Notes: generated from the sequence alone by a model not told the origin. A stretch of DNA of 64,000 nt from a virus (IMGVR_UViG_3300035498_002028), one strand, 5' to 3'; positions 13,996-48,999 are shown, numbered from the stretch's first letter. A program made the numbers and translations.

Positions 13996-14001
13996 GATTT
14001 A

Positions 14002-21327: not shown

Positions 21328-22573
21328 CTAATTCCCCCATTTCTTCAACAAGACTATCTCGGTTATTTTTGAGAACACCTTTCATTACCATATCTAAAAG
21401 GTAATTTAAAACTGCTCCAATTTGTTTGCCTTCATATCCAAAACGTTTTATATCGTTACCATTTACGGCAAGCTGAGAAAGCATAAAGCAATCATTTTTA
21501 TCCTTGACCATCATCGCAACATATAGCATATTTACAAAGACAATTTCCGCTTTATCATTTGATTTAGCCCTAGAGTATGCGATAGAATAGAACAATGCCA
21601 TTTGAGTATCTTCATACCCAATATCATGCATAATCTTCTTGATAAAGTATTCCATTCCACATTTCTCGGCATCATATTCCAAAATTTGCTGACCATATTT
21701 TCTAATATGCAGTACACTGAGGATGGTTTCATTATCGTATCTGAGGTTTGTAAGAATATCTTTTAATTGCTCTTCTGGAAAATCGAAGAACAAAGCCAAA
21801 CGAACATTTTTAATTTGGTCTGAATGCATAATATTACTTATATATGAAATATCTGTTTCTTTTAATGCCGGAAACATCTCAAAGAAAATGCTCTCTGCTT
21901 TGCGTAATATCTTTGAAACACTCACAGCATCTCCCATAAGAATCTGCGTGAGTTCAGAATTGATTCTCTCAGCAGATATTTTTGATAGTAATGTTTTTTT
22001 ATTTTCCATCGCCACAAAAGTATTATCTTCAATATCAAATCCAAATCGAACTGCAAATCTTAATGCTCTCATAATTCTCAAAGCATCTTCTGAAAAGCGC
22101 TCTTCTGGATTGCCAACGCAGCGCACAACCTTATTCTCAATATCTTGTATGCCGCCATATAAATCCACCAACCCATCTTTATTATTGTATGCCATGGCAT
22201 TCATTGTAAAATCTCTTCTGGATAAATCTTCTTTTAACGAGTTGGTAAAGACAACATTTTTAGGATGTCGAGCATCTTCATACTCTCCGTCAATACGATA
22301 TGTAGTAATTTCATACTGCTTATCGTCTTTTGCAATCGTAACTGTCCCATGTTTCAATCCGGTTGGAATAACTTTGAAATGATTGAAAATTTCAATTATC
22401 TGTTCTGGTTGAGCCGATGTGCATATATCCCAATCGTGAGGTTTCTTATTCATTATGCTATCTCTTACGCAGCCACCAACAATATATGCTTCGTATCCAG
22501 CTTCGTGTAGCATATGTAATATCAATTTTACATTCCCTGGCATTTCAATATTGATAAGCATTATTTCAATCAT
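21308..22573 (-). CDS. tRNA nucleotidyltransferase (CCA-adding enzyme family, class II NTase)
   Basis: GGCVRDSIMNKKPHDWDI ... RDFTMNAMAY match the CCA/poly(A) polymerase head domain; in-window tRNA genes do not encode CCA. Confidence 0.7.
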   Translation of the reverse strand: MIEIMLINIEMPGNVKLILHMLHEAGYEAYIVGGCVRDSIMNKKPHDWDICTSAQPEQIIEIFNHFKVIPTGLKHGTVTIAKDDKQYEITTYRIDGEYEDARHPKNVVFTNSLKEDLSRRDFTMNAMAYNNKDGLVDLYGGIQDIENKVVRCVGNPEERFSEDALRIMRALRFAVRFGFDIEDNTFVAMENKKTLLSKISAERINSELTQILMGDAVSVSKILRKAESIFFEMFPALKETDISYISNIMHSDQIKNVRLALFFDFPEEQLKDILTNLRYDNETILSVLHIRKYGQQILEYDAEKCGMEYFIKKIMHDIGYEDTQMALFYSIAYSRAKSNDKAEIVFVNMLYVAMMVKDKNDCFMLSQLAVNGNDIKRFGYEGKQIGAVLNYLLDMVMKGVLKNNRDSLVEEMGELGEVQKM

Positions 22574-22586
22574 CTCCTTTTAATGG

Positions 22587-23534
22587 TTAATTCCACGGAT
22601 TTGGTATTGGTTCTAAAAATCTCGCAAGACATCCGTTATGATAAAAAACTAAATCATCATCTTCGATTTGTTCACAAAAATAATACTTCACGATTTGATG
22701 ATATATTTCTGCACTCAAACATTTAAACTCAACTAGTTCAGAATCATTTATCATATGTTTAATCCAGCCATCAGTATTGTAAATCCTTTCCAATCTAAAC
22801 ATGGTAAGTCGTATATATTTCTTCACATCACTAAATTCCAATGCATTTTTGACGCAATCATATAACATATCAATATCACCATCAGATGATATTCGTATTT
22901 TAGGCTGCAATATAATCTCATCTTCTCCGAGACTGAACACTTCAAATTTACCTGCAATATGTGGAATAATTGTATCTAATAATTCGCTCATCAGATATCT
23001 TTCATATTGAATCTGTTTCTTTGGATTGCAAGCTCCCATAACAACTTGTCGTATATACTTGCTGTTAATAATATGTTTGCTGTTTGTATAGGAACTAACG
23101 AACTCTTCCCAGGTATCACAATAATTAAAAATACTGCTAGACCAATAATGCAATGCTGAGAAATTTGCCTTCTTCATATCCAATGACATAAATACAAGCC
23201 CATTGTTATCCTCGACATATACATTCTTCCTTGGATACTGACTGTTTACCGTATACTGATTATATGAAAATGCATTAAATTCAACATTTTCTTTTATGTC
23301 AGTTATAATATTGTCTTTTACTTGGTTATAGTATTCGAAATAATCTTGTTCACAGTTATATGATTCAAGTTCCTTGCAGAAAATTTCAAATGCTTCAACA
23401 CATGGTTTTACTATATTTATGATGTTTAATCGCTGCATAAAATATGGATTATCATAAACTGCAATAGGAATATTGTAGTCTTTGCAAAATCTCTTCTTTA
23501 ATGAAATTGATTGCAATGCTTCATCTCTTGTCAT
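22587..23534 (-). CDS. hypothetical protein
   Basis: 315-aa ORF. Confidence 0.5.
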   Translation of the reverse strand: MTRDEALQSISLKKRFCKDYNIPIAVYDNPYFMQRLNIINIVKPCVEAFEIFCKELESYNCEQDYFEYYNQVKDNIITDIKENVEFNAFSYNQYTVNSQYPRKNVYVEDNNGLVFMSLDMKKANFSALHYWSSSIFNYCDTWEEFVSSYTNSKHIINSKYIRQVVMGACNPKKQIQYERYLMSELLDTIIPHIAGKFEVFSLGEDEIILQPKIRISSDGDIDMLYDCVKNALEFSDVKKYIRLTMFRLERIYNTDGWIKHMINDSELVEFKCLSAEIYHQIVKYYFCEQIEDDDLVFYHNGCLARFLEPIPNPWN

Positions 23535-23606
23535 TTCATACCTCGTTGTTTGCCGTTTTCTCTACGAATTTTCAAATCATCCTCAGAGTTTAGAACTCCA
23601 TCTACA

Positions 23607-24644
23607 TCAAGAAATATAACCTTCATTTGTTATCACCCTCTCATTTACACTGGCAACGAAATCGTCAATCTTTTCTCTGTCAACGGTATCCGGCAAACCT
23701 GTATGCTCTTTTAAGTAATCCAATTTTTTCTCCATATCGTCTACAATCTTGTAGAATTCCTGCGTTGGTTGTCTATTTTCGTCAAGATACTTGCCATTTC
23801 TGATATCCATTAAAAAGTCATGTTCTTTTTCTCTATATGTGCAAATCTCACCATATTCAAGTATGTCAAAACACATTAAATATAGTCTTACAAGATGGCA
23901 CATATGTTTCCCTAATTTACTGTGCTCAATCGCTTTACTGTTACGTTTGCCTATTTTCCCATAACCGCTCACAATAGCTTTCATCTCGTTCCACATATTA
24001 GCCCAATCCCTTAGTGGATAATGCTGTAAATTGATATTCATAAATATTTCAGTATCGTATCCTTCTTCAACTGCTTTATCAATAAACAACTCAAGCTCGC
24101 CATCCGACATGGGAAAATAATTCTGTTTAAAATCAACCGATGCATGTTCAATTGTTTTTAAAATATGCTTCTCATTGTCACTTTGGCTTACAAGTCTTGC
24201 GGATTTGTTTTCAAGGCGGCGAAGCTGCGCATTTGCGTAACCTCCAAAAGAATGAATTGCCTGCTTAGAAAGAAACATCTTTCTGTTATTTACAAGTTCT
24301 TCACCTATTGGAGATAAATACAGATAATGCTCTGGTTTCAAGCCTAAAATTTCAATTGTGTTTGGGTTACATTTGCACAGCAATTCGATAATTTTGTCGA
24401 ATGAGTAAACTGTAGTATCTGTTTCCACGTCCACGACTTGTTCAAAATCTTTACCTGTTAAAATATTCCTTCTTGAATTTGTGGCAATCCCCCGAACATC
24501 TAAGTCGCTGTTTTCATTACTGGTTCCATATGCATGGCTGCCGCCTAATCCTAACAGGACAATATGACTTCCCAGACTTTCATGTTGTCTAAGGAAGTCA
24601 TAGTCGGACGATTGAACTTTTGTTTTAATTTCTTCTAAATTCAT
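23607..24644 (-). CDS. Pol-beta superfamily nucleotidyltransferase (minimal NTase core)
   Basis: LGLGGSHAYGTSNENSDLDVRGI matches the GS....G......SD.D NTase motif. Confidence 0.5.
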   Translation of the reverse strand: MNLEEIKTKVQSSDYDFLRQHESLGSHIVLLGLGGSHAYGTSNENSDLDVRGIATNSRRNILTGKDFEQVVDVETDTTVYSFDKIIELLCKCNPNTIEILGLKPEHYLYLSPIGEELVNNRKMFLSKQAIHSFGGYANAQLRRLENKSARLVSQSDNEKHILKTIEHASVDFKQNYFPMSDGELELFIDKAVEEGYDTEIFMNINLQHYPLRDWANMWNEMKAIVSGYGKIGKRNSKAIEHSKLGKHMCHLVRLYLMCFDILEYGEICTYREKEHDFLMDIRNGKYLDENRQPTQEFYKIVDDMEKKLDYLKEHTGLPDTVDREKIDDFVASVNERVITNEGYIS

Positions 24645-25760: not shown

Positions 25761-26195
25761 CTACATATTTATATCAGCCAAACTTGCAATTCTGATGATG
25801 GCATCATCTGGTGTATGTCCGTCCCATTTTGGTGCATGGTCAAGCTCTGGTACATTGAAAATGTCCCAATATGGTTCAATATCATAATGATATGTAGCTT
25901 GTCCTTTTGGAGTGTTAATGCCTACAATAAACATTCCGTCATACATATCACCAGTATCATGCAGCCTGGACTTCCATGCAAGCTCCGGATTGTTATTACA
26001 GATTACAGCAAACAAAATTGCTCTATGATGATATAGCTCATCAAAGGTATGGTATCCATCTGATACCTTACCGTATTCACCATTTAGAATTAGTCTTGTA
26101 TCCTCTCTAATTAACTCTTTACTAGGCGTTTGCAAAACGCCAAAAGCCGCATAAATACGGCATTTTTTTGTTGACAAAATAAAATATCTCCTCAC
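25761..26195 (-). CDS. hypothetical protein
   Basis: 144-aa ORF. Confidence 0.45.
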   Translation of the reverse strand: MRRYFILSTKKCRIYAAFGVLQTPSKELIREDTRLILNGEYGKVSDGYHTFDELYHHRAILFAVICNNNPELAWKSRLHDTGDMYDGMFIVGINTPKGQATYHYDIEPYWDIFNVPELDHAPKWDGHTPDDAIIRIASLADINM

Positions 26196-28424: not shown

Positions 28425-28650
28425 TCAAATGCCAGTTTGCAATTTCTAATCCTTGTCCATAAAGTGTGTCAAAATACATTTGGAATTTAATTGACACACA
28501 TGCAATTTGTCTTGCATCAGAAATAGCTTTATCTACGGCAGCTTTGCCATTGAAGCCACCGTAGTATTCGTATTCTGCCAGCTTTGCAATAGATGTTTCT
28601 GGATTGAGAATTGCAAGTGCATCCTCCAAACTCATCTCTTTGTTTCTCAT
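28369..28650 (-). CDS. hypothetical protein
   Basis: 93-aa ORF. Confidence 0.4.
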   Translation of the reverse strand: MRNKEMSLEDALAILNPETSIAKLAEYEYYGGFNGKAAVDKAISDARQIACVSIKFQMYFDTLYGQGLEIANWHLNGETEPFDNFYENALEEQ

Positions 28651-29444
28651 ATAATTACATCCTCAATAAATTCATATAATTGTGGGTCAAGATATCTTTT
28701 AAGCAGCTCTTTATTATTAAAACCAGTACCATGGTAAAATTCCTCTGCTATGCCGCCACCAATAGCGCAAAGGGTATCTGTATCGCATTTTAGACTAAGA
28801 ACATTTCTCAAAAAACTCTCATAATCTTCACTTTCTAAAAAACATCTTACCGCTACTGGTACACTTCCTTGGCATGTCACATCCCATCTGTATGTATCTC
28901 TGATATCACTCAATTTCATATCAGCTGGATACAAGTAATCACCGGAAGGATATTGCTCAATTATATATTTCTCAATTTCCTTTTTGGAAGCGCCACATTT
29001 TGCCATCCAACCAAGAATGGCTGTGACTACAGCTCCCTTTATTCCCTCGTAATGATTGTGTGTGCATATCGCCGTATCTTGCGCCATTACAGCCACATCT
29101 CCAATTTTACTGTCACTGTTAAAAACATCAATTACAGGTGATACCCTCATCGCTGAGCCATTTCCATAACTGTTATATGGTTGGAGTGTGTCATCAATCA
29201 ACCACGTACAAAATGAGCCGCCATATCCCGCCTGCGGATATTGATTTCCAAATATATGATAAGCAATTGCAAAAGGTATGCTTTCTTTAATTGCATATTT
29301 TGTTGCGATTGATAAAACTGTATCATCCGTATATTTACAATCGTCTGTATATAAATCTATATGCCGCCAATCTAAATCATTTGGTCTGCCAAATTCCCAT
29401 CTCGAACCAGCTATATCTCCTAAGATTGCTCCAATAATCGCCAT
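28647..29444 (-). CDS. ADP-ribosylglycohydrolase (DraG/ARH family)
   Basis: MAIIGAILGDIAGSRWEF...DDTVL matches the ARH N-terminal motif. Confidence 0.7.
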   Translation of the reverse strand: MAIIGAILGDIAGSRWEFGRPNDLDWRHIDLYTDDCKYTDDTVLSIATKYAIKESIPFAIAYHIFGNQYPQAGYGGSFCTWLIDDTLQPYNSYGNGSAMRVSPVIDVFNSDSKIGDVAVMAQDTAICTHNHYEGIKGAVVTAILGWMAKCGASKKEIEKYIIEQYPSGDYLYPADMKLSDIRDTYRWDVTCQGSVPVAVRCFLESEDYESFLRNVLSLKCDTDTLCAIGGGIAEEFYHGTGFNNKELLKRYLDPQLYEFIEDVII

Positions 29445-30048: not shown

Positions 30049-31002
30049 TTAATACTTGATATTTATAGTTCCATGTTCGTTTATCCAATCAAGCATATTT
30101 TTATATCCAAGCCCATTTTCATTTATTGGGCGCATTATAAAATCATATCTTTTTGGATGCATCTCCTTGATGCGTTCAAGCCTATTTGGACATCCATCTG
30201 ATTGTATGCCATAAAGACAAAATTCACATCCAGTTCTCTGACATCTGGTAGTATGTAATAGTCCATTATCATTCTCAACTATTTCTCCATATACATCTTT
30301 TGCATACGGAATATTGAAGTCTCGAATATATTTCAATATATCTTGTTCAGTCCAAAAACTTAAAGGTTGAGAGGTTGGTCTTGTTTTTTGAAACGCATTG
30401 CATCCATATTTAATCCAATTCGATTTACGTTGAGCCGATTCTGCCGCCATAGTCCCAATAAAAGGATGTAGACCAGTCTCTTTCTCGTATTTCTTTGCTG
30501 GATTTTTCTTCATAATGTCACAACACTTATCTCCAATTTGGAACGGAGCATTTACTAAAAAACGCCACTTCTTTGAAATCTTACCTCTCCCATACTTATT
30601 ACCTTCCCAACGTATCGTTCTTAGTTTTTCTGACTTGGTTGTGCGGTATTCTTGTATATAAGAAGATTGCTCTTTGCTTATTATAGGATAACCATATTTT
30701 AAAATAACATCTTTAAAATTCATTTCTGGTCTGAGCCAAGTTACATTGTCAATCGTTTTAACAAAATCTTTTATCTCTGGATATTCCAAACCTGTATCTA
30801 CATATACGGCTGGAACTTCCGGATACAGTTCTCTTACAAGGTGCAAAAGGACTGTACTATCTTTACCTCCACTAAAACTAACATAGACGTTTCCATTAAA
30901 TTCGTTATACCACTGACGTATTCTTGATTTTGTCATAGATATTTTCAAATCTAATGATAAATGTTGCATTATCAGAAGGTCATTATTTGTTCGCGCACTC
31001 AA
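30049..31002 (-). CDS. PAPS reductase-family PP-loop ATPase (DndC-like); possible DNA or nucleotide modification enzyme
   Basis: YVSFSGGKDSTVLLHLV PP-loop motif. Confidence 0.6.
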   Translation of the reverse strand: MSARTNNDLLIMQHLSLDLKISMTKSRIRQWYNEFNGNVYVSFSGGKDSTVLLHLVRELYPEVPAVYVDTGLEYPEIKDFVKTIDNVTWLRPEMNFKDVILKYGYPIISKEQSSYIQEYRTTKSEKLRTIRWEGNKYGRGKISKKWRFLVNAPFQIGDKCCDIMKKNPAKKYEKETGLHPFIGTMAAESAQRKSNWIKYGCNAFQKTRPTSQPLSFWTEQDILKYIRDFNIPYAKDVYGEIVENDNGLLHTTRCQRTGCEFCLYGIQSDGCPNRLERIKEMHPKRYDFIMRPINENGLGYKNMLDWINEHGTINIKY

Positions 31003-33305: not shown

Positions 33306-35187
33306 CTATCCTTTTTCAATCAATTTATAAGCATTTCTAAGAGAGCTACTACCAATATTCAATGTAAGTGTTCCAATAGTATCTTGGTCTTTTCTTATAT
33401 TGCTATTGTAATCATCATATACAATGGTATCTGATTTATTATCTGACACCAATGTTGCTGTAACAGTACCATGATTTTCTTTTACGCAAGGTGCACAACC
33501 AGAAGAAGAAACTATTCTACTTGCATCATGGTTACTTTTCATGTAGTTTCCTAGAACTTCAATTCTACTACTCCCCCGACACAATCATGTGTTAATGGAA
33601 TATCAGAAACTATAAAACTCTCTTCTCCATTTGTACCACCATTGATATCATCAAATAATTTATCTAATGCACACTCAAAGGCTCCTATTCCAGAGAAAAA
33701 GCTGCCGACCTTTAAATTGTCAAATAAATAAGGCATAGCTTTGTATAAATTTTTGTATATGTAATATAAAACATCAACCACAATTGAGTTTCCAGCTTGT
33801 TTGTATAGCTGCGTATTACTAACACCAGCATTACTAGCTCTGTCAAATGCTTCATCAGAAAAAGCCATAAGTCTAAAACATTCTCTTGGTGTTAATTTAC
33901 GGATTCTATAACCAACATTATTATTTTGTTCTATCACTCTTTTACCCCCCGGAATCTATTGTACGGATTGTTCCACATACATTATCTTTGAATGTACGCA
34001 AACCTTCATCCATTCTTTTCTCACAAATAATCTTTTCCATATCATCACTACTTTCTGAATACTTCATCATTTTCTTTATCCAAAATCAAAATTTTAGGTG
34101 GGTCTTTATAATCTGTTGCTCTTAATGATTGGCAACACCCCCCGATAGATAGAACTCTTACTCTATCCTGGCATCCTTTGTTTGGATTTAATGAACCTAT
34201 AACGCAAATTCCACTGTTCTTTTTCTTCATATAATTACTCCTTTTTGCTATGTTCTATAATTGCTGTTGGAGATTTATAATCACAAGCATTCAAACACCT
34301 AGTAATACCATTTGAATCATAAACCATGTTTGACTGATGTTTTCCAGTACCTTTATCAAGATAACCAACACAGTTTACACTTGAATCATATCCCATTGAT
34401 GTCTGTCTATGCTTCCTCTCCCCCCCCCCCCCGCACGAACAGTATTAGAAAATTCTTTATTTAGTTTTCCATTCTTTTCTAAATCTTCTAATAGCTCTTT
34501 TGCCTTTGGAGTATTAACATAAAACTTTTGGTCAACCTCATCTTCTAATACATCTTTAAGACGTATATCGCTATTAAATCCTTCCGGAAATTCAAAGAAT
34601 CCGTTATCTAATTCTTTTTTGATGATTACTAGATATACTCGTTCTCTATTCTGAGGTACACCGAAATCTTTTGCATTTAACACCTTGTAATATGTGTTAT
34701 ATCCGTATTCATTTAGTTCTTCAATGAACATATTAAATGTGTCTTTGAACTGTTTCCCTACAATATTTTTTACATTTTCATATATGCCCCAATTTGGTTT
34801 ATTGGCTCTTATTACTCTTAACCATTCAACTAATAATGAAGAGCGTGTCTTATCAATTTCTTCACTATCACATACAGGGCACTTATGCCTTTTTGAATAA
34901 TGAACTGTTAATGGATTGTATTCGTGATTACACTTTATACACTTCCATTTACTACCAGCTTGCTTACCTGCCACTGAAAAATCTTGACAAGGCGAACCTC
35001 CACAAATCATTGTAAATGGTTTTAATTCACTTTCATCAACCTTAGTAATATCGCCAAGATTCAAACTTTCGTCAACATCATGGATTGCACAGTAACTTTT
35101 TGTTGCATATTTATCAAATTCACAAAAATTTACAAGCTCATATCCTTTAGATGTTGAACTTATATTTTTATTTGTCATAATAAACAC
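33306..35187 (-). pseudogene. C5-cytosine DNA methyltransferase region broken into at least 4 frames by poly-G/C tracts (13, 6, 6 and 5 nt)
   Basis: 35187-34375 carries motifs II-VIII (EFDKYATKSY, GGSPCQDFS, ENV, GVPQNRERVY), ending in the C13 run at 34420-34432. 34230-34048 has a TRD-like piece (QDRVRVLSIGG...DYKDPPKI). 33937-33551 has motifs IX/X (RKLTPRECFRLMAF, QAGNSIVVD) then a motif-I-like VGSFFSGIGAFE. 33584-33306 is reachable across a C5 run. Confidence 0.6.
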
Positions 35188-36314: not shown

Positions 36315-37304
36315 TTATTTAATAAAGCTCAAGATGTGTGAAATTATATCCACAGTCCATCCATCGCCCAAAACATTCGCTGCGTCATTTCGATTTAAGC
36401 ATTTAGTATATCCTTCTGGAACCGTTTGGCATCTTTCTAATTCCAACTGATTCATATATCTTACACCATTAAATACATCGCCTGTATAATTATCTAAATC
36501 ACTCGCCGCTACTTTTCTTTTTCCACCAGATAGTCTATTATATTCTTTCACGCATTGTTCATAATGAGTTTCATCTTTAAATATCAATGTCGTAAATCCA
36601 GTAGAATAATACCGATGAAACATTTTTACTGGTGTAGCATTTGGTCTGCTATCAATAACTGCCAAACATCTTGCTTTTTCACGGTCTGTATAGCCATCAG
36701 TAAGGATGTCTTTTAACAATATTCCTTTATCTTCTGGTTGTGTTATGCCAGGTATATTTGTCCAATAATATCTTTTTCTTAAAGCCGGAGCAACTAATCG
36801 ACTATCAATTTTTATCGGTTGCAAACCTAAGAATGCACTGATTGTATCCTTATCAGAATCTTTCATACTTGCTACATTTTCCATTAGAAAATATGTAGGT
36901 TTCACTTCTTTTAAAATTCGACTACACTGATAAAACAAACCCGATTTTTCAAGATTTTCTAATCCTACTCTTTTTTCTGTAGGAATTGCAATAGAAAACG
37001 TTTGGCAAGGACTTCCAAAAATCATCAAATCAAAATGTGGTACGATATAATTACCCGATTCTGTTTTTAAAATATGGTTTTCATATGATACTTTATTCAC
37101 ATCACCAATTTGTATAATATCTGGATAATTTTCTTTTGAAACTTTTATGCCAATATCCTTGATTTCACTTGCATAATACTTATCTACTTCTATTCCAGCT
37201 CGTTCTAAAGCAATTCTGCCGCAGGACATACCATCACATAGACTTAATACCGTTAAGCCTTTGTTTGTTGATAAAATACCTTTTTGATTATCGTTTATTC
37301 CCAT
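36315..37304 (-). CDS. C5-cytosine DNA methyltransferase (Dcm-like)
   Basis: LSLCDGMSCGRIALERAG (motif I), FGSPCQTFS (IV), ENV (VI); a consensus sigma70 promoter lies just upstream. Confidence 0.8.
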   Translation of the reverse strand: MGINDNQKGILSTNKGLTVLSLCDGMSCGRIALERAGIEVDKYYASEIKDIGIKVSKENYPDIIQIGDVNKVSYENHILKTESGNYIVPHFDLMIFGSPCQTFSIAIPTEKRVGLENLEKSGLFYQCSRILKEVKPTYFLMENVASMKDSDKDTISAFLGLQPIKIDSRLVAPALRKRYYWTNIPGITQPEDKGILLKDILTDGYTDREKARCLAVIDSRPNATPVKMFHRYYSTGFTTLIFKDETHYEQCVKEYNRLSGGKRKVAASDLDNYTGDVFNGVRYMNQLELERCQTVPEGYTKCLNRNDAANVLGDGWTVDIISHILSFIK

Positions 37305-37493: not shown

Positions 37494-39476
37494 TTACTTA
37501 CAAAGCTCCATAAATTCTTCCTCAGATATAATTTGTGTACCAAATTTAATAGCTTTCTGATTCTTGCTGCTGCCAGATTCTTTATCATTTGTGATAAGAT
37601 AATTCGTCTTTGCAGTTACGCCGGATACAATCTTACCACCATACTTTTCAATTTCTTCAACTAATGCATCCCGATTAGAAAAATGAATCAGTTTTCCAGT
37701 GATACAGAATGACTTACCACCAAGTTTATTGTTTGCAACCGTCTGTTCATCATCTTCTGCAATCTCCAAAATACTGATTAAAGGCTCAATTTCAGCTCGA
37801 TTACTCTGAATAAATGAATTGATATTGTTGCTTGTTACTGTGCCAAAATCTTCAAGTTGTGTCCAATCATAATTACAGCAAGCCAAAGAAATAAATGTTT
37901 CTAATGCTTTTCCATTCTTCCTCATTGACATACAATGTTTTGACAATGACTTCGCACTCGATTTCCCGACACCTGGAATACCTATCGCTGTTAATACACT
38001 TGATAATTTACATTGTCGGCTCTCTTCTATTGATTTTAACAAATTTGAAACACTGCTCTTACCATATCCATCAAGTTTCTCAATTGAATCTTTATGAATA
38101 TATAACTTGTAAATACTTTCAAAATCTGAAATATATCCAAGCTCCATCAACATTCTAAGTCTTTCATCGGACAATCCAACGATATTCATTCCTTCTCTTG
38201 AACAAAAATTTGCCATCTTATCATGTAATCTTGCCGGACAGTTTTCATTGATACAATTCAATGTTTCCCGCTGGTTATCGTCTTTAATAACTGCTCTGCC
38301 GCCACAGCAAGGGCATTGTGTAGGAATCTTATATGTATCACTTTGCGTGAGATTCTCCATGATTTTAGGTATAATCTGATTGGATTTGATAATGGTAACT
38401 GTATCTCCAATACCCAGCTTTAAATCCTTTATAATACTCACATTATTCAAAGTAGCCCGACTAACAGTAGTGCCATCAATTTCAACTGGCTCAACAATTG
38501 CAACAGGATTTATTAAGCCTGTTCTACTCGTTGACCACTCAATGTCAATAAGTTCTGTCTCATTTCTCTCTTGATAGAATTTGAATGCTAATGAGTGCTT
38601 TGGATGATGACCCGTCATCCCAAGGTTGTTACCATACTGAATATCATCAAACATTCCAACCATTCCATCAATCGGATAATATTTTTCTTCACAGATTTTT
38701 TTCAACATCTCAATTGACTGTTCACATTGATTTTCCAAATCCTCACAGTATACGAGAGGAACAACTTCAAATCCCAATTTATCCAGCAATATAAAGTTTA
38801 GAGAATTCTTGTTAAATTCTCGTTTTCCATCTTTATCCTCTGCTTTATACAGTTTCCAAGCAATAAACTTAATTTTTCTCTTTGCTGCTATCTCACTGTT
38901 AAGCTGCCTTACTGAACCACTAACAAGATTTCTAGGATTTTTATAAGGGACTATTTCACTTTCATTGATTCCCTTGAACGTTTCATAATCAATAATTGCT
39001 TCTCCATCAATCCATAACTTGCCTTTGTATGGAATTTGAAATGGAAGATTTACAAACGTGCGAACATTATTCGTGATATCTTCCCCAATCTCTCCGTTGC
39101 CACGGCTCTCCGCTCTAACTAATTCCCCATCTTCATAATATAAAGAGCATGTAAGTCCATCCATCTTAGCCATTAAAACCATTGGCTTCTTGCCAAAATA
39201 CACAATGAAATCACTCAACTCCGTTGTCTTTCCAAGAGATAATAAAGGATGGTCATGTTTTACTTTTTCCAACTTACTTAATACTTCATAACCAACGCTT
39301 TGGGTAGGAGAATTTGCATATATAATACCTGTCTCTTCTTCAAGTGCAGCAAGTTCATCAAAAAGTTTGTCATACTCTTTATCACTTATAATACTTGTAT
39401 TATCATTGTAATATGCATTACGATAAACATTTAGTTTTTCAACAAGTTCCTGTACTCTATTCACCCTCTTCACCAC
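37494..39476 (-). CDS. ligA: NAD-dependent DNA ligase
   Basis: KMDGLTCSLYYEDGEL (KxDG adenylation motif), CPCCGGRAV zinc finger, HhH and C-terminal BRCT-like region; 660 aa. Confidence 0.85.
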   Translation of the reverse strand: MVKRVNRVQELVEKLNVYRNAYYNDNTSIISDKEYDKLFDELAALEEETGIIYANSPTQSVGYEVLSKLEKVKHDHPLLSLGKTTELSDFIVYFGKKPMVLMAKMDGLTCSLYYEDGELVRAESRGNGEIGEDITNNVRTFVNLPFQIPYKGKLWIDGEAIIDYETFKGINESEIVPYKNPRNLVSGSVRQLNSEIAAKRKIKFIAWKLYKAEDKDGKREFNKNSLNFILLDKLGFEVVPLVYCEDLENQCEQSIEMLKKICEEKYYPIDGMVGMFDDIQYGNNLGMTGHHPKHSLAFKFYQERNETELIDIEWSTSRTGLINPVAIVEPVEIDGTTVSRATLNNVSIIKDLKLGIGDTVTIIKSNQIIPKIMENLTQSDTYKIPTQCPCCGGRAVIKDDNQRETLNCINENCPARLHDKMANFCSREGMNIVGLSDERLRMLMELGYISDFESIYKLYIHKDSIEKLDGYGKSSVSNLLKSIEESRQCKLSSVLTAIGIPGVGKSSAKSLSKHCMSMRKNGKALETFISLACCNYDWTQLEDFGTVTSNNINSFIQSNRAEIEPLISILEIAEDDEQTVANNKLGGKSFCITGKLIHFSNRDALVEEIEKYGGKIVSGVTAKTNYLITNDKESGSSKNQKAIKFGTQIISEEEFMELCK

Positions 39477-40074
39477 CTATCCAGGAATTATAGCCATCGG
39501 AAATTTGTTGCAATGTTTTAGGTGCATAATCCATATATGGATACATACATCCGACATTAAATGCTTTAACTGAAAAACCTTGTTTGTTTAGATAATTGCT
39601 TATTTGTCTTTCTAATTCTGCTTCTTTGGTAACATGTGAATGACCATGAATCAAAACAGCTTCATGATAATGTCCTTCATAGAATGGCATATAATAGTGT
39701 GACATAATTACCTGTATCTGTTTCCCGTCAAGAACATCTGTAACTTTTTTGTAATTTACGATTTCTTCAAAACGTTTCTTAAATACAGAAGATGTGGTTT
39801 TGTCATGATTCCCTAAAATAAGATGCAGATTCCCATGCATCTTATTCAATATACTCATAGCTTCATTTCTATTGGTATCGTTGAATTTCCATATTAAATC
39901 GCCACAAATATATACATGGTCTGCATTCGTAACACTCTCATTCCATCGCTTCAAAATATCGTTATTCATTTCCTCAACGTCTTTATATGGTCTATCATCA
40001 AAATTCTTTCCAGCCTTTGTAACGTTTTTATGAAATAAATGAAGGTCTGAGATATATAACTTTCTTTGTTCCAA
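39457..40074 (-). CDS. calcineurin-like metallophosphoesterase
   Basis: LYISDLHLFH ... GDLIWK ... GNHD ... HGHSH motifs. Confidence 0.65.
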   Translation of the reverse strand: MEQRKLYISDLHLFHKNVTKAGKNFDDRPYKDVEEMNNDILKRWNESVTNADHVYICGDLIWKFNDTNRNEAMSILNKMHGNLHLILGNHDKTTSSVFKKRFEEIVNYKKVTDVLDGKQIQVIMSHYYMPFYEGHYHEAVLIHGHSHVTKEAELERQISNYLNKQGFSVKAFNVGCMYPYMDYAPKTLQQISDGYNSWIGGEEGE

Positions 40075-40530: not shown

Positions 40531-41445
40531 TTATACCTCCGTTGTTCTGTCTTGGTTATGCGGAATTAAAAGCATCTCTTTGCTACTAAATCCGGCAGCG
40601 CCAGCATGACCGCCACCACCATGATTCATTGCAATCTTTGAGACATCAATCCTATTTGAACGCAGTGAATATGTCCATACATTTCCATCAAATGAAAATC
40701 CAACAAACATATCATAATTTTCTGAATCTACGGAATTAAAATCGTCACTGCTTACCATTGCGAGATTGATTGCAAAACATTTGAATCCATCAAGTATTGC
40801 TTCGAAACCTTTTATTGCGCAATATTCAGCAACCCAGCCCTCTCTATATGTGATAATATCTACTCCACTCTTACAAATAGAATCCAATAATTTTTCATCT
40901 GAATCAGTAATTAAATCATTCCAGATTTCGTCTGTTGGTTCATTATCATATAACTGAAAACCACTCGCAAATCGTCTTGTTTGAATGCCATACTTAAATG
41001 TCCATACATCATAATCTGCAATAAGTTTTGTAAACATCGGTGCTTCTTGTGTCATAGAGATATCGAAGTTTTTAATCACTTCTCCAACTCCACCATCCGT
41101 CATGAATTTTAAGAAACAGAATGTAAGCATACATCCGGCAACACCATCTAATCGAATACCTCTGATATTCTTCGTATATCCTCTATATCTTTCAATTGAT
41201 GATTGATGATGGTCAATCCATACAACATCATTTGTAATTTCAAGAAGCCTATCCATTTCTTCCGGGAAAATAGAATAGTCAACGATATATACCTGTTCAC
41301 CTTCTTGGATTTTATCAAATGGGAAATCCATACCATAATTGATTTTGTAAAACTCTAATGGATAGTTGTCACTGTGCCAAGCTAATTCCTTAACCCAGAA
41401 TCCAGCACACTTTCCATCATTATCAACGTGATAAAATACTTTCAT
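40531..41445 (-). CDS. DHH/DHHA1 phosphoesterase (NrnA-like nanoRNase / pAp phosphatase)
   Basis: VVWIDHHQS (DHH motif) and GGGGHAGAAGF (DHHA1 GGGH). Confidence 0.65.
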   Translation of the reverse strand: MKVFYHVDNDGKCAGFWVKELAWHSDNYPLEFYKINYGMDFPFDKIQEGEQVYIVDYSIFPEEMDRLLEITNDVVWIDHHQSSIERYRGYTKNIRGIRLDGVAGCMLTFCFLKFMTDGGVGEVIKNFDISMTQEAPMFTKLIADYDVWTFKYGIQTRRFASGFQLYDNEPTDEIWNDLITDSDEKLLDSICKSGVDIITYREGWVAEYCAIKGFEAILDGFKCFAINLAMVSSDDFNSVDSENYDMFVGFSFDGNVWTYSLRSNRIDVSKIAMNHGGGGHAGAAGFSSKEMLLIPHNQDRTTEV

Positions 41446-42680: not shown

Positions 42681-43031
42681 TTAAGTATTGTTTCTATATC
42701 TCGAATATTTCTCTGCAAAACCCAGCTTATATCTTCGTATATGTCCTTTATAAATCAAATCTTTATACCACGGCATTTCAGTATCCTCTAAATCTGAAAA
42801 ATCATAATCGGCATTCCCATCACTCCACATAAAATGAAGCATCTGAAAATTCCCGTTTTCGGTTATACGTGGCTTGCAGAAATATATTTTCACATTGGGG
42901 CTTCTAATTTTTGCCTTAACCGCTTCAATTAAACAATTTGAATAATATGGCTTTGAAATAATCCGAAAACTACTCATGTTGCACACTCCTAATGCATTAA
43001 GCAATTCTAACAATCTGCTCAAAAAATACAT
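42681..43031 (-). CDS. hypothetical protein
   Basis: 116-aa ORF. Confidence 0.4.
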   Translation of the reverse strand: MYFLSRLLELLNALGVCNMSSFRIISKPYYSNCLIEAVKAKIRSPNVKIYFCKPRITENGNFQMLHFMWSDGNADYDFSDLEDTEMPWYKDLIYKGHIRRYKLGFAEKYSRYRNNT

Positions 43032-43767
43032 AGAATTTACTCATAATTCTTTGTGAGCAATGATAATGTCCCGCTAACCAAGAATCGAATTCTAATCCAT
43101 CGTCTATCAGCTGGTTAAAATACATTGTCAAAATATCTGGTTTATAAAATCCTTTTGACAATACAGAAGCTACGCTTTGTGGTAAGCAATGACTGATAAC
43201 AATATCAACCTTGTTGTTATGCTTTGCTAAGTTTTCAATTCCTCGCTGCATTTCCTCTTCTGATGGTAGTTCCTCGTCCCACCAAGAAAATCCTCTTACC
43301 CTAAACATCTTATTCTGTTTATTCCAAAGGTTATAGGTTTTTCTGAAATCCTTTTCACTTGCAAAATCGTTAGGGTCTAATATACCATCTTGAATATCGT
43401 GCGAACTTGCCCCACCAAATGCAAAAATTTTCTTGTCGCATAGCTCAAACACATAACCTCTCATTAAATGATAAACGCTATCGTTAATCTTGTGGGCTTT
43501 GCCGCCATAAAAATCAACAACCTCAAATGCATCATTTAGCACAGGATGATTGTCATGGTTTCCATCTATGAATAAAGTTGTAAAAGGTTTCTTATCTAGC
43601 CAGTCAAGCCAATATTTTTCTCCTTTTGTTTGCCGATTGTTCCAGACAAGCCCGAAATCTCCAAGGATAATTACAAAATCATCCTTGGTCATTTCTTTTT
43701 GTTCCGGGAAACAATCTGTGCTAAATCTACTAGGGTCGCCGTGGATATCTCCTGTTATATAAATCAT
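42997..43767 (-). CDS. calcineurin-like metallophosphoesterase
   Basis: MIYITGDIHGD ... GDFGLVWN ... GNHDNH motifs. Confidence 0.65.
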   Translation of the reverse strand: MIYITGDIHGDPSRFSTDCFPEQKEMTKDDFVIILGDFGLVWNNRQTKGEKYWLDWLDKKPFTTLFIDGNHDNHPVLNDAFEVVDFYGGKAHKINDSVYHLMRGYVFELCDKKIFAFGGASSHDIQDGILDPNDFASEKDFRKTYNLWNKQNKMFRVRGFSWWDEELPSEEEMQRGIENLAKHNNKVDIVISHCLPQSVASVLSKGFYKPDILTMYFNQLIDDGLEFDSWLAGHYHCSQRIMSKFYVFFEQIVRIA

Positions 43768-44044: not shown

Positions 44045-45727
44045 TTATTTATAAAACCTGTAAATATTGTCATCATTAACAATAATGAACTGTCCACCAT
44101 TCTTTATAAGTACACTATCTGAGCTAACTGCGCTGCAAGTAAAATCTTTATACTGTAAGTTTTTTACATTTAATCCTCTGATTGCATCGTCAATAGGAAT
44201 GTAGATTGCGCCATTGTCATAGCATACGTTATATACAGGACACTTGTAATTGATTTTATCGCTTGACCATTTCAGCACATTCTTGTCAAGAATATATGTA
44301 TGAAACATAGACGTTTTATCTTCAATAATCACAAGCCACCTGTCAAGTTTCTTGTCATAATGCGGCGCACAATTTTGAATACGCTTATAAAAATCCATCA
44401 CATAATTGTACCCGTCAATATTGATAATGACTTTGTTATCATAAGCATTAACCAAACAATATTTACCATTTACAACATTGAAGAATGATGTGCTGCTACA
44501 CTTTGCAATATTCCTTCTCCCAATGCCATTCGCAGTAATTTCGATACTTGATAAATATTCTTGGTCAGATAGATAATAAATCGTGTTATTGTCAATCACC
44601 GGATACGAATTGTACTTAATCGGAATTCTTGACTTTCCAATCTCCATATAGTCCTTATAGCAAATAATTACATTTCCATTTTTATCAAACAGGCAACGAC
44701 CACCATTATATTTAACCTTTTTGCCAGTCGTTATACTTACAACTTCATCATTCTTATTAAGATATGCTTTATCTGAAAATACTGCCTTGATATCAAGTGC
44801 GGATAATACATCTGCAATCTTAAAACCATTTTCAACGCCAATAGAGATTGCCTTACTGATTACCTTTGCTGCCATATTACACATAGGACATGTATCAAAA
44901 TCAGAAAAATAATAATCATTGTCAGTCTTACAAAAAGTGAGGTGTGTTAGCATGTCTTGTATGAAGTCCCCAAATTTTCTATCTCCATTATTGAACACAT
45001 TTTTAAACCCATTTACTAAATCCGGCGATAAATTTCTCCATGTCTTTGTTGTTTTAGGGATTTTCACGTTTGGATTATCAATCACAGATAAACCTTTATT
45101 TATTCTCTCCACAATTTGCATATCTGGGTTTGTTGTGCCGCCAAATGGATGTATTCTTGTGAGTGACTTCCATGCAAGCACACAGAATGCATATGTATCT
45201 GTATCTGCATTGAAATTATCCCCAACTAACTTAGGGTCTTTGAACAAATCCATTGCCACTTCACAATGTTGTGAACCAATGCTCCAACTATCTGTATCAA
45301 TGATAAATACATCCTTTGTCTTTGGGTCAAAGAGAATGTTTTGGTCATTCAAATCACCAATAAAGATATTCTGATTGTGCAAAATTTGTAACACATTCCA
45401 AATCTTACTAAGCATTTCGAGAATATCTTTTGTATTGATATTGTTTGAAGTAACAAATTTCTTGTTGGATAAACGCTTAAAATCTTCTCCCTGTACTTTA
45501 GGCATTACCATGCCAATAAAGCGATTCTTTTTGTCGAATACGCAGTCTGTGGGCTTTACTACTTCTTTTGGCAGATTGGCGTTCATAAGCATCTGAATTT
45601 TTTGTTGCTTGGATGCAAGATTTATATGTGGTTTGTAAATCTTAATAACAGATTTCTTCCCATATTCATATATAATCCCTTCCCCACCTTCCGTCAGTGG
45701 AGTTTTTCCATAAGAATCAAATTGCAT
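44045..45727 (-). CDS. Ser/Thr protein kinase-like domain protein with C-terminal repeat/propeller-like region (kinase of a TerY-P-like triad)
   Basis: GGEGIIYEYGKKSVIKIYK (Gly loop plus Lys), IGDLNDQNILFD (catalytic-loop-like), IIDTDSWS (DFG-like). Confidence 0.55.
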   Translation of the reverse strand: MQFDSYGKTPLTEGGEGIIYEYGKKSVIKIYKPHINLASKQQKIQMLMNANLPKEVVKPTDCVFDKKNRFIGMVMPKVQGEDFKRLSNKKFVTSNNINTKDILEMLSKIWNVLQILHNQNIFIGDLNDQNILFDPKTKDVFIIDTDSWSIGSQHCEVAMDLFKDPKLVGDNFNADTDTYAFCVLAWKSLTRIHPFGGTTNPDMQIVERINKGLSVIDNPNVKIPKTTKTWRNLSPDLVNGFKNVFNNGDRKFGDFIQDMLTHLTFCKTDNDYYFSDFDTCPMCNMAAKVISKAISIGVENGFKIADVLSALDIKAVFSDKAYLNKNDEVVSITTGKKVKYNGGRCLFDKNGNVIICYKDYMEIGKSRIPIKYNSYPVIDNNTIYYLSDQEYLSSIEITANGIGRRNIAKCSSTSFFNVVNGKYCLVNAYDNKVIINIDGYNYVMDFYKRIQNCAPHYDKKLDRWLVIIEDKTSMFHTYILDKNVLKWSSDKINYKCPVYNVCYDNGAIYIPIDDAIRGLNVKNLQYKDFTCSAVSSDSVLIKNGGQFIIVNDDNIYRFYK

Positions 45728-45739
45728 AAGCTCACCACC

Positions 45740-46453
45740 TTACATAACCACAGAAAAATCATCCTGGAATATCTTTTCATTGCGATTGAAAAATAACTTC
45801 ATTCGCATATCTTTCCCGGACAACAATACTTGTTTTAATTCTTCTTTTAGTGGGTTGCCATCTTCAAGGTCTGCAACAAACCTAATACCATCGGAAGCAA
45901 CGCCAATGTTATTAACACCTTCAAACTCTATTGTTTCAATAGAAACACCATCTTTGTATTCACTCATACGAGAACCATCAACATAGTTGTAACAAAGATA
46001 TTTTGGATATTTTCCACAATCCAGTTTTCTAAAAGAAATTGAATCATCCTTGTTTACAATGATGTATCCATCACCACAGTAATTAACCCATGCGTTATTG
46101 CTTCCCAATTCCTTTTCTACAACCAAAGTTGTAAATGATAAATAATCCTTAATATCTTCCGGATTATCGCCAATAAGTTGCACAAGCTCATCCATCACAG
46201 ACATCATAAGCGCAGGAATGTCAATGTATTTCTTGCCTTTTTCTACAAAGTTTTTATACCTGTCTACAATCAGCTTGCAAAATAACTTTGCTCCAATTTC
46301 AGAATGCTTTCCTGCTGAGCAGCCATCACACACTACCTTAAATATCCCTTTATACTCGCCAGTTGCGTCTTGACAGTTAATGCTTTCCTCTTTATGAGAG
46401 AATCCCATTTTCAATACGTTCATATTGTTCCTCCTAACAATTATGGGGAACAA
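45740..46453 (-). CDS. PP2C-family Ser/Thr phosphatase
   Basis: INCQDA...VCDGCSAGKHSE...YCGDGYIIV...VASDGI match PP2C metal-binding motifs. Confidence 0.6.
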   Translation of the reverse strand: MFPIIVRRNNMNVLKMGFSHKEESINCQDATGEYKGIFKVVCDGCSAGKHSEIGAKLFCKLIVDRYKNFVEKGKKYIDIPALMMSVMDELVQLIGDNPEDIKDYLSFTTLVVEKELGSNNAWVNYCGDGYIIVNKDDSISFRKLDCGKYPKYLCYNYVDGSRMSEYKDGVSIETIEFEGVNNIGVASDGIRFVADLEDGNPLKEELKQVLLSGKDMRMKLFFNRNEKIFQDDFSVVM

Positions 46454-46493
46454 GATATGCTCTCATTCCCCATAATCCATTTCATAAATCTAT

Positions 46494-47195
46494 CTATACG
46501 AAGAATGCATCTCCGTCAGCAACAACCGACTTAGAACTCTCGATTACGGACTTGCTCAGACAATTAAAAGCCTTCCTTAATTCACTTGCAGAACTTCCGA
46601 CTTCAAGCAGATTCACAAATCCAAGCCGCTGAGCTTCCACCTTCGCGTCACCTCCGAAAGAAATAAACGCAGTGGTAATCTCTTCTCTGTTCAAGTTTTC
46701 GATAGCCTGTCTTGCCGTTGCTACATCTGCTCTTGAAGCGTTCTCAAATCCGTCTGAGAAAATAGCAAATACACACTTTACTCTCACACCCTGGTCACGA
46801 AGGTATTTGCGATATTCAAGCATTTTTCTGCTGCCCTCAACAACCGTATCATACATTGCTGTTGAGCCACCAGCTGAGAAACTTGTATCGAACTCGTCAA
46901 TTGCCTTGTAACCGCCGATATTGACATCGCTTGCAAAATCAGCGCGGGCAACCAAAATCTCATTAGATTCCTTTGAATTGGTAAGCGCATCCTTAAAATC
47001 ATTTAAGCACTGAATCATGTCATTGCTGTATGATGACATCGAACCGGAACCATCAATACCAATCATCATAAGGTTTACGTTTTCACTCTCAAGGTCATCA
47101 ACACTGGTATTCTCTTCTTCGATGCCAAGACCGTCAATTTCTAATCCGTTTGTTTCAAAATCACTCATTGTATTACCCTCCTTACAGAATAGCAT
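46494..47195 (-). CDS. von Willebrand factor A domain protein (TerY-like)
   Basis: LMMIGIDGSGSMSSY is a MIDAS D.S.S motif; adjacent to the PP2C and kinase genes. Confidence 0.65.
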   Translation of the reverse strand: MLFCKEGNTMSDFETNGLEIDGLGIEEENTSVDDLESENVNLMMIGIDGSGSMSSYSNDMIQCLNDFKDALTNSKESNEILVARADFASDVNIGGYKAIDEFDTSFSAGGSTAMYDTVVEGSRKMLEYRKYLRDQGVRVKCVFAIFSDGFENASRADVATARQAIENLNREEITTAFISFGGDAKVEAQRLGFVNLLEVGSSASELRKAFNCLSKSVIESSKSVVADGDAFFV

Positions 47196-48090
47196 CTGTT
47201 GATTTTACGATGTTGACACCGTATACAGATACAAAGTTGTTAAAAGTATCTTCTGTTACCTGCTCAAAACCAGGAATACTTGACATACAATCGCTAAGAA
47301 TATAAATCTTTTTAGTTACTTCTGGCTGATTTGCATAATTCTCAAGAATCTGCTTGATAGTTTCAAGTACGCAATGGGATTTTGCTTCGCCAGCAATTAC
47401 AATCTTGTCGTATGATGCAACAGAATTTAAGTAGTCGATATTGACATAATTCTTTGTATCATACTCCGGCTTGATAATGCCGTACATCTCACTTAATGGG
47501 TCAGTACCTTTAACCAGACGCTTAACAACCGACTTCTTTGCTACGCTGTGGAAATAAATCATATTTGCAAACTGGTTTTCAAGCGCACAACCTGTAGTTC
47601 CCTGGATGCAATGATAAGCCCAAATGCATAACTGCTTCTTTCCATCCTGCTCCAAATGCTTTACATACTCTCTTGATTCCTTTGGTGCAATAACAGGCTT
47701 CCATTTTCCAGAATCAAGGTCTGCCAACGTAATGACAGTATAAGGAGCCGGATTATTGCCATTTTCATCTACCCACCAACACGGATGGAAAATCTGATGC
47801 GGCGTATGTGTATCAATAGATACGGCAATATTTGAAATCTTGTCCATGTTATTGTAGATAAACTGCGTCATTCGCTCTACATCTCCATGTGCGCCAGGAA
47901 CTCCCAACGCCCCATTGTCCATGAAGTCCTGCTGTACATCAATCCCAAGGAACAATACTCTCTCCGTATTCTGTTTCGCTGGAGCAAGCTGTTCGTCATT
48001 TGCCATCTTCAAAATGTCATTTAATGCAATCGGATTTTCTTTTGCTCCAATAGACGGAATGTTTACTATATCGTTATAAGGTGTATTCAT
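47182..48090 (-). CDS. isochorismatase-family cysteine hydrolase (nicotinamidase-like)
   Basis: LFLGIDVQQDFMDNGALGV ... SIDTH pattern. Confidence 0.55.
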   Translation of the reverse strand: MNTPYNDIVNIPSIGAKENPIALNDILKMANDEQLAPAKQNTERVLFLGIDVQQDFMDNGALGVPGAHGDVERMTQFIYNNMDKISNIAVSIDTHTPHQIFHPCWWVDENGNNPAPYTVITLADLDSGKWKPVIAPKESREYVKHLEQDGKKQLCIWAYHCIQGTTGCALENQFANMIYFHSVAKKSVVKRLVKGTDPLSEMYGIIKPEYDTKNYVNIDYLNSVASYDKIVIAGEAKSHCVLETIKQILENYANQPEVTKKIYILSDCMSSIPGFEQVTEDTFNNFVSVYGVNIVKSTDAIL

Positions 48091-48888: not shown

Positions 48889-48917
48889 TTTAATGTTTTA
48901 TAATAGCGTTTCCGCAA

Positions 48918-48999
48918 TGCTGGTAGAGAGATTTGAACTCTCACATCTAATGATACCGGAGCTTAAATCCGGTGTGTCTGCCATTCCACCATACCAGCA
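48918..48999 (-). tRNA. tRNA-Leu (anticodon UAA), class II with long variable arm
   Basis: Manual fold: acceptor GCTGGTA/TACCAGC, D-arm GTG-GAATGGCAGA-CAC, anticodon stem CCGGA/TCCGG with loop TTTAAGC, long variable arm, T-arm AGAG-TTCAAAT-CTCT, discriminator A; no encoded CCA. Confidence 0.65.

Follow-up and report, generated by a model that had tools for sequence, protein, structure and literature searches.

What would a phage do with a Ser/Thr kinase, a PP2C phosphatase and a von Willebrand factor A (vWA) protein encoded side by side, and on what would such a set act? The question is raised by a locus in IMGVR_UViG_3300035498_002028, a 64,000-nucleotide stretch of viral DNA that we refer to, at its full length, as the window. 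A first-pass annotation, made from the sequence alone, had read three adjacent minus-strand genes at 44045–47195 as a signalling triad of the TerY-P type. The open reading frames (ORFs) lie exactly there, every motif quoted for them (IDGSGSMSSY, DGCSAG, GDGY, SDGI, VIKIYK, IGDLNDQNIL and DTDSW) occurs in the translations, and the three family assignments hold, given a Pfam PP2C_2 match, an invariant metal-ion-dependent adhesion site (MIDAS) together with AF2 modelling and Foldseek, and intact kinase residues. The unit is a set of four genes; the annotation had missed a gene at 47182–48090 that encodes a nicotinamidase-like enzyme of the PncA type. We consider it very likely that the locus is a functional four-gene unit derived from TerY-P. 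The explanation that we favor overall, to which we give a little less than an even chance, is that these genes form an operon in which kinase and phosphatase act as a phospho-switch on a vWA–nicotinamidase pair, in the salvage of nicotinamide and nicotinamide adenine dinucleotide (NAD+).

All four genes are on the minus strand, and none of the proteins has lost its catalytic or metal-binding residues. In transcriptional order they are the gene for the enzyme (47182–48090, 302 amino acids), which is directly upstream of the vWA gene and abuts its start; the vWA gene itself (46494–47195, 233 amino acids as annotated); the PP2C gene (45740–46453, 237 amino acids as annotated); and the kinase gene (44045–45727, 560 amino acids). 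Approximately 40 nucleotides (nt) separate the annotated stop of the vWA gene from the PP2C start, and 12 nt separate PP2C from kinase. Judging from homologues, two of the annotated starts are too early: the vWA protein probably begins at M10 (nt 47168), as do its relatives of 225–229 amino acids, and the likely PP2C start is the ATG at nt 46423, which gives 227 amino acids.

Is the fourth gene a partner of the other three? Hidden Markov models for all four proteins were run over every locus fetched, and 91 loci on the phage/Clostridia side, with flanks of 3.5 kb or more to either side of the kinase gene, could be evaluated. All four genes are found on one strand in 88 of the 91; in two further huge phages the remaining genes lie just beyond the first flank, with the order kept and with insertions of up to ~10 kb, bringing the count to 90 of 91. 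The phage order is enzyme, vWA, PP2C, kinase, except at L086, the most divergent viral locus, which retains all four genes with the enzyme after the kinase (vWA, PP2C, kinase, enzyme). In every close relative, the 302-amino-acid gene is directly upstream of the vWA gene. The four-gene set occurs in three huge phages, and in the 462-kb huge phage LR756500, whose kinase and vWA protein are less than 30% identical to those of the window, the order is isochorismatase-like enzyme, vWA, PP2C, kinase. Among 50,697 deposited phage genomes, enzyme and kinase match exactly the same four records. The cassette keeps the same genomic position over a deep divergence within the phage lineage (kinase identity of 30–87%), and the gene set co-occurs, with its order unchanged, in ~150 independent loci, more than is expected by chance. 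Because the enzyme gene travels with the other three across phages and bacterial chromosomes, we count it as the fourth member; the nicotinamidase-like enzyme is an obligate partner, linked in nearly all loci. The annotation had named two findings that would speak against its own reading, a non-kinase fold and a lack of co-occurrence in related phages, and we find the opposite of both: the kinase is confirmed as such, and the genes co-occur. The cassette also tolerates insertions; one clade has a ThyX (Thy1) gene and small ORFs between vWA and PP2C, and another has ~1 kb between PP2C and kinase (L001, 8703–9687 and 10357–10758; L017, 5958–6947).

The module is not phage-specific, since several bacterial phyla have the same set on their chromosomes. 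When one genome per species was scanned for the kinase, relatives turned up in Chloroflexota (Ardenticatenaceae, Promineifilaceae, Anaerolineae), Polyangiaceae, Ktedonospora formicarum and a Moraniibacteriota metagenome-assembled genome (MAG), among others. At 17 of the 23 evaluable loci from Chloroflexota, Myxococcota and related bacteria, the set is complete, arranged as a cyclic permutation of the phage order (PP2C, kinase, enzyme, vWA), and the bacterial cassettes are on chromosomal contigs of megabase scale. In Chloroflexota, it occupies one fixed location next to enolase across genera, which is not an obvious defence island. Taken together, the loci resolve into two tight pairs, one of enzyme and vWA and one of PP2C and kinase, and lineages differ in how the pairs are ordered relative to each other. 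Enzyme and vWA probably form the core pair because their genes abut or overlap, because a Candidatus Leptofilum locus (L167, 8987–10783) keeps only this pair, without PP2C and kinase, and because one unknown domain is found fused to either protein. This domain, of ~240–270 amino acids (GRVIRG..P.DF..LS.DPDRKL) and without a Pfam match, is joined to the enzyme in the Moraniibacteriota MAG (L159, 8863–10653) and to the vWA protein in the metagenomic protein P0243. Two longer representatives of the vWA protein were considered as fusions of enzyme and vWA and were rejected: P0243, whose added domain is the one just described, and P0249, whose N-terminus looks AP2/homing-endonuclease-like by eye. 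Near the L167 pair are IS110 and DDE transposases, with an NACHT/EAD7 protein at the edge of the locus. At 12 of 35 Chloroflexota-type loci, a STAND-like protein of ~1,650 amino acids, with AAA_16/AAA_22 domains and FG-GAP/PQQ beta-propeller repeats, is encoded immediately 5' of the cassette in the same orientation (for example, L150, 493–5418; L168, 674–5572; L126, 351–5369); other Chloroflexota genomes have housekeeping-like genes there instead.

What kind of enzyme is the fourth member? When a profile of 13 homologues is compared with the PDB, nicotinamidases come out on top (29iv, E 9.7e-14; 2h0r, E 9.4e-13; 1ilw, E 2.5e-10; 2wt9, E 2.3e-7), and Mycobacterium tuberculosis PncA (3pl1) is matched at E 1.7e-6. 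The catalytic triad D51, K194 and C240 and the metal site D93, H95 and H160, equated with those of PncA by alignment and motif, are invariant in the 13 diverse members, and phage and bacterial clades alike retain them. The likeness to PncA thus comprises the Asp-Lys-Cys triad, the D-x-H...H metal site and the W-x-x-H...G..G and G-x-A-x-x-x-C motifs. The window-type enzymes differ from PncA in an N-terminal extension of ~45 residues and an insertion of ~45 residues between the metal-site motifs, and in always being encoded next to a TerY-like vWA gene. Because insertion and extension are conserved in all clades, we assign the enzyme, on its sequence, to a distinct PncA-type subfamily of the isochorismatase superfamily. 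The PncA-like gp275 of phage G belongs to another subfamily and is not matched by tblastn. Of the four proteins, the enzyme is conserved best across clades (80% identity where the kinase has 43%), and kinase and PP2C are the least conserved and fastest evolving.

The vWA protein is harder to place. Searches with the single protein and with a profile of its close homologues (Pfam to E 10, NCBIfam, and phmmer and hmmsearch against the PDB) return nothing meaningful, and the Pfam VWA model, which flags some of the homologues, has no match to the window protein. An AF2 model built with 40 homologues has a pLDDT of 82, and Foldseek of this model against the PDB finds vWA/MIDAS domains only (E ~1e-8, probability 1.00). 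The MIDAS residues D48-x-S50-x-S52, T112 and D148 are invariant in the 40 homologues; other features are an acidic disordered N-terminal tail, a C-terminal S-x-S helix and a terminal FF motif. Is it also a TerY-like protein? A narrow alignment of the vWA family (A1) compared by hhalign with single R478 TerY sequences gives E 0.02–0.11, too weak to use. A cross-clade alignment, however, matches an alignment of TerY from plasmid R478 and Selenomonas with 97.5% probability and E 5.7e-12 over 181 columns, and single TerY sequences at E 3e-9 to 4e-5, whereas two non-TerY vWA proteins of R478, used as controls, give E 0.002 and 0.075; the match spans the F..W-S-x-S helix at the TerY C-terminus. Since the cross-clade profile matches TerY far better than the non-TerY controls, the vWA protein is, by profile comparison, specifically TerY-like. 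At E up to 1e-10, a set of 1.84 billion representatives yields 393 clusters for its family, and the members have no annotation beyond hypothetical or "VWA domain-containing." The idea that the N-terminal tail holds a conserved phospho-acceptor was entertained and dropped, as the NTS in question is invariant in close phage homologues only.

The PP2C protein is matched by Pfam PP2C_2 at E 1.8e-13 (51 bits, with a cut-off of 24) and consists of the catalytic domain only; its metal-binding motifs QD, DGC, GDG, SDG and DD are invariant in 54 unique homologues. In the kinase, a Hanks-type Ser/Thr kinase domain (residues 1–261; 44945–45727, minus strand) with intact catalytic residues (Gly loop G14-G15-E16, K29, D125, N130 and D144) is followed by a degenerate zinc-ribbon-like hairpin (residues 262–290; 44858–44944, minus strand). 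This segment, modelled as a beta hairpin, has three Cys and one Asp in the motif C266-x2-D269...C280-P-x-C283; C266, C280, P281 and C283 never vary, and conservation of D269 is at least 90%. An alignment of a kinase profile with the R478 TerY-P kinase extends to the CPxC motif (E 7e-5). Of the bacterial kinases, 21 of 35 have the full zinc ribbon motif CxxC-x12-CPxC, after which the bacterial proteins continue for more than 200 further residues; the alignment of phage with bacterial kinases covers the kinase domain and the Cys motif only.

What follows the hairpin in the phage kinase had been described as a long C-terminal repeat region. TRF finds no sequence repeat there, and the segment is instead predicted to be an all-beta domain (residues 300–560; 44048–44830, minus strand), with 28 regularly spaced strands in seven groups of four in a confident model. 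It is probably, going by this model, a seven-bladed beta-propeller; no fold match was obtained for it. It is a candidate for binding a substrate or a ligand. Among viral structures, the kinase is best matched by a 550-amino-acid protein of "Myoviridae sp. ctNQV2."

How close is the cassette to TerY-P? PMC11090510, in its summary of Anantharaman, Iyer & Aravind 2012, gives TerY-P three components: a vWA protein of the TerY type, a PP2C, and a Ser/Thr kinase that has a zinc ribbon fused to its C-terminus; it also describes a variant with an OB fold (Gao et al. 2020; a kinase–OB fusion) that acts as a stand-alone defence system. In the reference triad of plasmid R478, three TerY genes are followed by PP2C and then the kinase. 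The cassette agrees with R478 in its three domain types and in their order of transcription (vWA, PP2C, kinase), and its kinase is followed by a predicted zinc ribbon in bacterial members and by a putative remnant of one in the phage. It differs from TerY-P in its obligatory fourth gene for a PncA-like hydrolase, a partner that is absent from the R478 and Selenomonas triads; in the extra all-beta domain of ~260 amino acids on the phage kinase; in a PP2C that is a bare catalytic domain, of 237 amino acids rather than the 545 in R478; and in having no TerY-C domain. BLASTP of the window PP2C against the R478 PP2C gives no match. With the system of Gao et al. 2020, it shares the core of vWA, phosphatase and kinase, which in that system can function alone; the differences are the putative zinc-ribbon remnant and beta-rich domain in place of an OB fold, the added nicotinamidase-like gene, and a match to STK_OB that is weaker than those to generic kinase models. 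In PADLOC-DB v2, the kinase matches STK_OB, which we take to be the model of the TerY-P kinase, at E 0.0028, behind mad6, MkoA and PD-T4-6; the vWA protein and PP2C have no match to E 10 apart from an unrelated HamC at 0.017, and the enzyme matches none of the defence models. The TerY-P label of the first-pass annotation is therefore upheld for the TerY-like vWA protein, the R478 gene order and the alignment of the kinase to the CPxC motif, and it finds no backing in PADLOC or in the company of ter partners. By its sequence, the cassette is a TerY-P derivative and not a canonical member.

How might such a derivative work? Kinase and PP2C would form a reversible Ser/Thr phosphorylation switch, for which the C-terminal beta domain of the kinase might bind the trigger or the substrate. 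The vWA protein, its MIDAS metal site binding an acidic or phosphorylated partner, would serve as an adaptor, scaffold or regulatory subunit of the nicotinamidase-like enzyme, and the output would be the controlled deamidation of nicotinamide, or of a close pyridine carboxamide, to nicotinic acid. On a phage, nicotinamide released by NAD+-consuming defences and by ADP-ribosylation could be steered into the host's Preiss–Handler route, such that NAD+ is sustained during infection; the kinase may have host targets as well. The phage has an NAD-dependent DNA ligase of its own (37494–39476), for which NAD+ is required, and NAD-linked chemistry is also indicated by an ADP-ribosylglycohydrolase that the element encodes (28647–29444; phrog_6572, E 9.5e-35). 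The element thus has several NAD-linked functions together. We put this specific NAD+-salvage mechanism forward tentatively, as a possible rather than a probable account. A wider proposal, that the module is a so far unrecognized TerY-P offshoot in which reversible Ser/Thr phosphorylation gates a vWA-bound nicotinamidase and phospho-signalling is thereby tied to the nicotinamide/NAD+ pool, chromosomal in bacteria and captured by large phages, megaphages among them, for an NAD+ arms race, we regard as somewhat doubtful; if it is true, NAD+ would be rebuilt for the phage, or a prophage would starve its competitors' reconstitution of NAD+ of nicotinamide.

Several observations weigh against a phospho-controlled nicotinamidase. 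The window enzyme scores below the cut-offs of both Pfam Isochorismatase PF00857 (18.7 bits, with 27 required) and NCBIfam PRK11609 (32.7 bits, with 174 required), and its huge-phage orthologue is just above the Pfam cut-off at 28.7 bits. Nicotinamide is the predicted substrate on account of active-site likeness, in a subfamily with a large insertion of its own, and the physical link among the four proteins is putative. No PncB, NadD or NadE partner is evident among the selected ORFs of the window that were profiled. The N-terminal tail of the vWA protein has no Ser or Thr conserved across clades, hence no shared phospho-acceptor candidate there, and the C-terminal regions of the bacterial kinases have no detectable homology to the phage beta domain (E 0.55). 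Other observations fit a role in conflict or defence as well as a metabolic one: the fast evolution of kinase and PP2C, the STAND-like NTPase upstream at 12 of 35 bacterial loci, the toxin–antitoxin-like (MazE- and PemK-like), methyltransferase and TnpB genes that flank the cassette in relatives, and the existence of TerY-P-like modules that act as stand-alone defence systems, as reported in PMC11090510.

Could the cassette then be an anti-phage defence or superinfection exclusion system of the TerY-P type (Gao et al. 2020), carried by a temperate or huge phage? The beta domain of the kinase would sense a competing phage and PP2C would restrain the kinase, while the response would be carried out or reinforced by the vWA protein and the hydrolase, for example, through destruction of nicotinamide that competitors need for rebuilding NAD+. 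The STAND-like NTPase that certain bacterial copies follow has beta-propellers. Beyond the observations just listed, the occurrence of relatives in 355–938 kb contigs of cultured Lachnospiraceae suggests a resident prophage and would suit such a role. On the other hand, enzyme, vWA protein and PP2C match no PADLOC defence model; the cassette has no nuclease, pore-former or NADase effector, and nicotinamide removal alone is not toxic; and its position is constant, both at the enolase-side site, which is kept across genera of Chloroflexota and is no variable island, and over the deep divergence of the phages. The enolase-side site, the absent toxic effector and the absent PADLOC matches argue somewhat against defence, which we consider unlikely and yet the most serious of the rival explanations. 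A different use of the switch, the one proposed in the first-pass annotation, would be host takeover, for which T7 Gp0.7 is the model: the kinase would phosphorylate host proteins or act as a decoy for Stk2-type abortive-infection kinases, PP2C would erase phosphorylation by the host or its defences, and vWA protein and hydrolase would be accessory. Kinase and PP2C look catalytically intact from their sequences, the large beta domain would be suited to recruiting protein substrates, and the cassette lies among early-type replication, RNA-repair and methyltransferase genes. Host takeover explains neither why genes for a nicotinamidase-like enzyme and for a TerY-like vWA protein are almost always linked to it nor why the same four genes are found in the chromosomes of free-living bacteria, where there is no host to take over; we judge it quite unlikely.

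A metal-stress module of the canonical TerY-P or tellurite-resistance type, captured by a phage, would account for the TerY-like vWA protein, the R478 gene order and the zinc-ribbon remnant in the kinase. Next to the window cassette, however, there is no TerD, TerB, TerC or TerZ and no DNA-processing or restriction partner of the CoCoNuT kind, and no TerD, TerB, TerC or McrBC-like gene is seen in the flanks of relatives; phmmer with R478 TerY and PP2C reaches the Selenomonas triad and not the proteins of the four-gene set, and neither of those triads has the PncA-like partner. Such a capture is very improbable. Finally, might the genes be mere neighbors, inherited in one phage lineage with no joint function? 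Synteny within the close clade of Lachnospiraceae phages could reflect common descent, but the linkage survives three gene orders and insertions of 1–10 kb, and it spans Clostridia phages, Chloroflexota, Myxococcota, Ktedonobacteria and Patescibacteria. Because the linkage is retained though permuted, this last explanation is effectively refuted.

If the phospho-switch on a vWA–nicotinamidase pair is correct, it would provide the first concrete enzymatic output for a TerY-P triad. NAD+ depletion and reconstitution are now regarded as a central battlefield between phages and bacteria. The phage pathways NARP1, NARP2 and NARP3 rebuild NAD+ directly, from ADP-ribose pyrophosphate (ADPR-PP) and nicotinamide, by Nampt and Nmnat, or by PnuC and NadR. 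The cassette is predicted to resemble them in acting on nicotinamide and NAD+ precursors against NAD+-depleting immunity; it would differ in that it only deamidates nicotinamide, relying on the Preiss–Handler enzymes of the host, and in being coupled to a kinase/phosphatase switch. We know of no NARP countermeasure that is under kinase control. In the searchable literature, we found neither a description of the four-gene set nor a phage counter-defence pathway built on a nicotinamidase. Two candidates for a prior description were checked and set aside: NARP3 is unrelated and its description does not mention the module, nor does a comparative review of jumbo phages. Other reversible signalling units are made of a vWA protein, a Hanks kinase and a PP2C, as in the PpkA/PppA/Fha1 pathway of type VI secretion. 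The DRA0331–0334 operon of Deinococcus is likewise such a unit (bioRxiv 10.64898/2026.01.23.701218). Compared by domain make-up only, both use FHA-domain readers and have no nicotinamidase.

The cassette spans gut phages, megaphages and free-living bacteria, and as a small module with its predicted active sites intact, it is testable; cultured carriers are Ktedonospora formicarum SOSP1-1, Diplocloster hominis CSJ-3 and Lachnospiraceae bacterium A4. Annotation at the level of the triad misses partners, and Pfam mostly fails to detect the vWA protein, the enzyme and the bacterial kinases.

Which element carries the cassette in the window? Its relatives among IMG/VR viral contigs are up to ~230 kb long, matching deposited phages are uncultured records only, and megablast of the locus against deposited phages gives no match. 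The phage-type cassette is found in contigs of the cultured Lachnospiraceae B54_54_AM_H (938 kb), Lachnospiraceae bacterium A4 (416 kb) and Diplocloster hominis CSJ-3 (355 kb). These contigs, from the set L097, L100, L106 and L109, exceed the phage in size, which suggests integration or stable carriage; strain 48-33 also has the cassette, on a 31-kb scaffold that is uninformative on integration. Because close relatives sit in these 355–938 kb contigs, the host is very probably a member of the Lachnospiraceae, and the element, which the annotation had taken to be lytic, may be temperate.

The window is AT-rich (~34% GC) and transcribed almost entirely from the minus strand; a scan for promoters and terminators found sites no more numerous than in shuffled sequence. 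Around the cassette are genes for a small membrane protein, metallophosphoesterases, a tRNA-Leu (48917–48999, just upstream) and an N6-methyltransferase. Downstream are a confirmed metallophosphoesterase (42997–43767) and a DHH/DHHA1-type phosphoesterase (40531–41445), and the ORF at 39457–40074 looks like a second one by eye and from its homologue in L004; a 256-amino-acid metallophosphoesterase downstream of the kinase is also kept in relatives. Replication genes (DNA polymerase, DnaB-like helicase, primase), the DHH phosphoesterase, RNase H, five or six tRNAs and one transfer-messenger RNA (tmRNA) are present in the window as well. There are three DNA methyltransferase genes (34375–35187, 36315–37304 and 49189–49944), the last with matches to phrog_5696 (E 1.8e-92) and Pfam N6_Mtase. 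An RNA-repair-type set at 12662–16078 and 21308–24644, consisting of a polynucleotide kinase (PNK)-like protein, an RNA ligase, a CCA-adding tRNA nucleotidyltransferase and a second nucleotidyltransferase, suggests the countering of host anticodon nucleases. A 532-amino-acid ORF at 51029–52627, with a C-terminal CxxC...CxxC, resembles the TnpB/IS605 OrfB type by motif, and a flank of the relative L007 holds a gene with OrfB_IS605 and Cas12f1-like_TNB Pfam matches. The tmRNA gene, with the tag peptide ANTELKAVA, lies beside tRNA-Lys, tRNA-Trp and tRNA-Gln (57531–58431). A tRNA-Phe called by ARAGORN on the plus strand at 25821–25894, within the minus-strand ORF 25761–26195, may be spurious or may represent an antisense gene, and a PAPS-reductase-like gene is found at 30049–31002.

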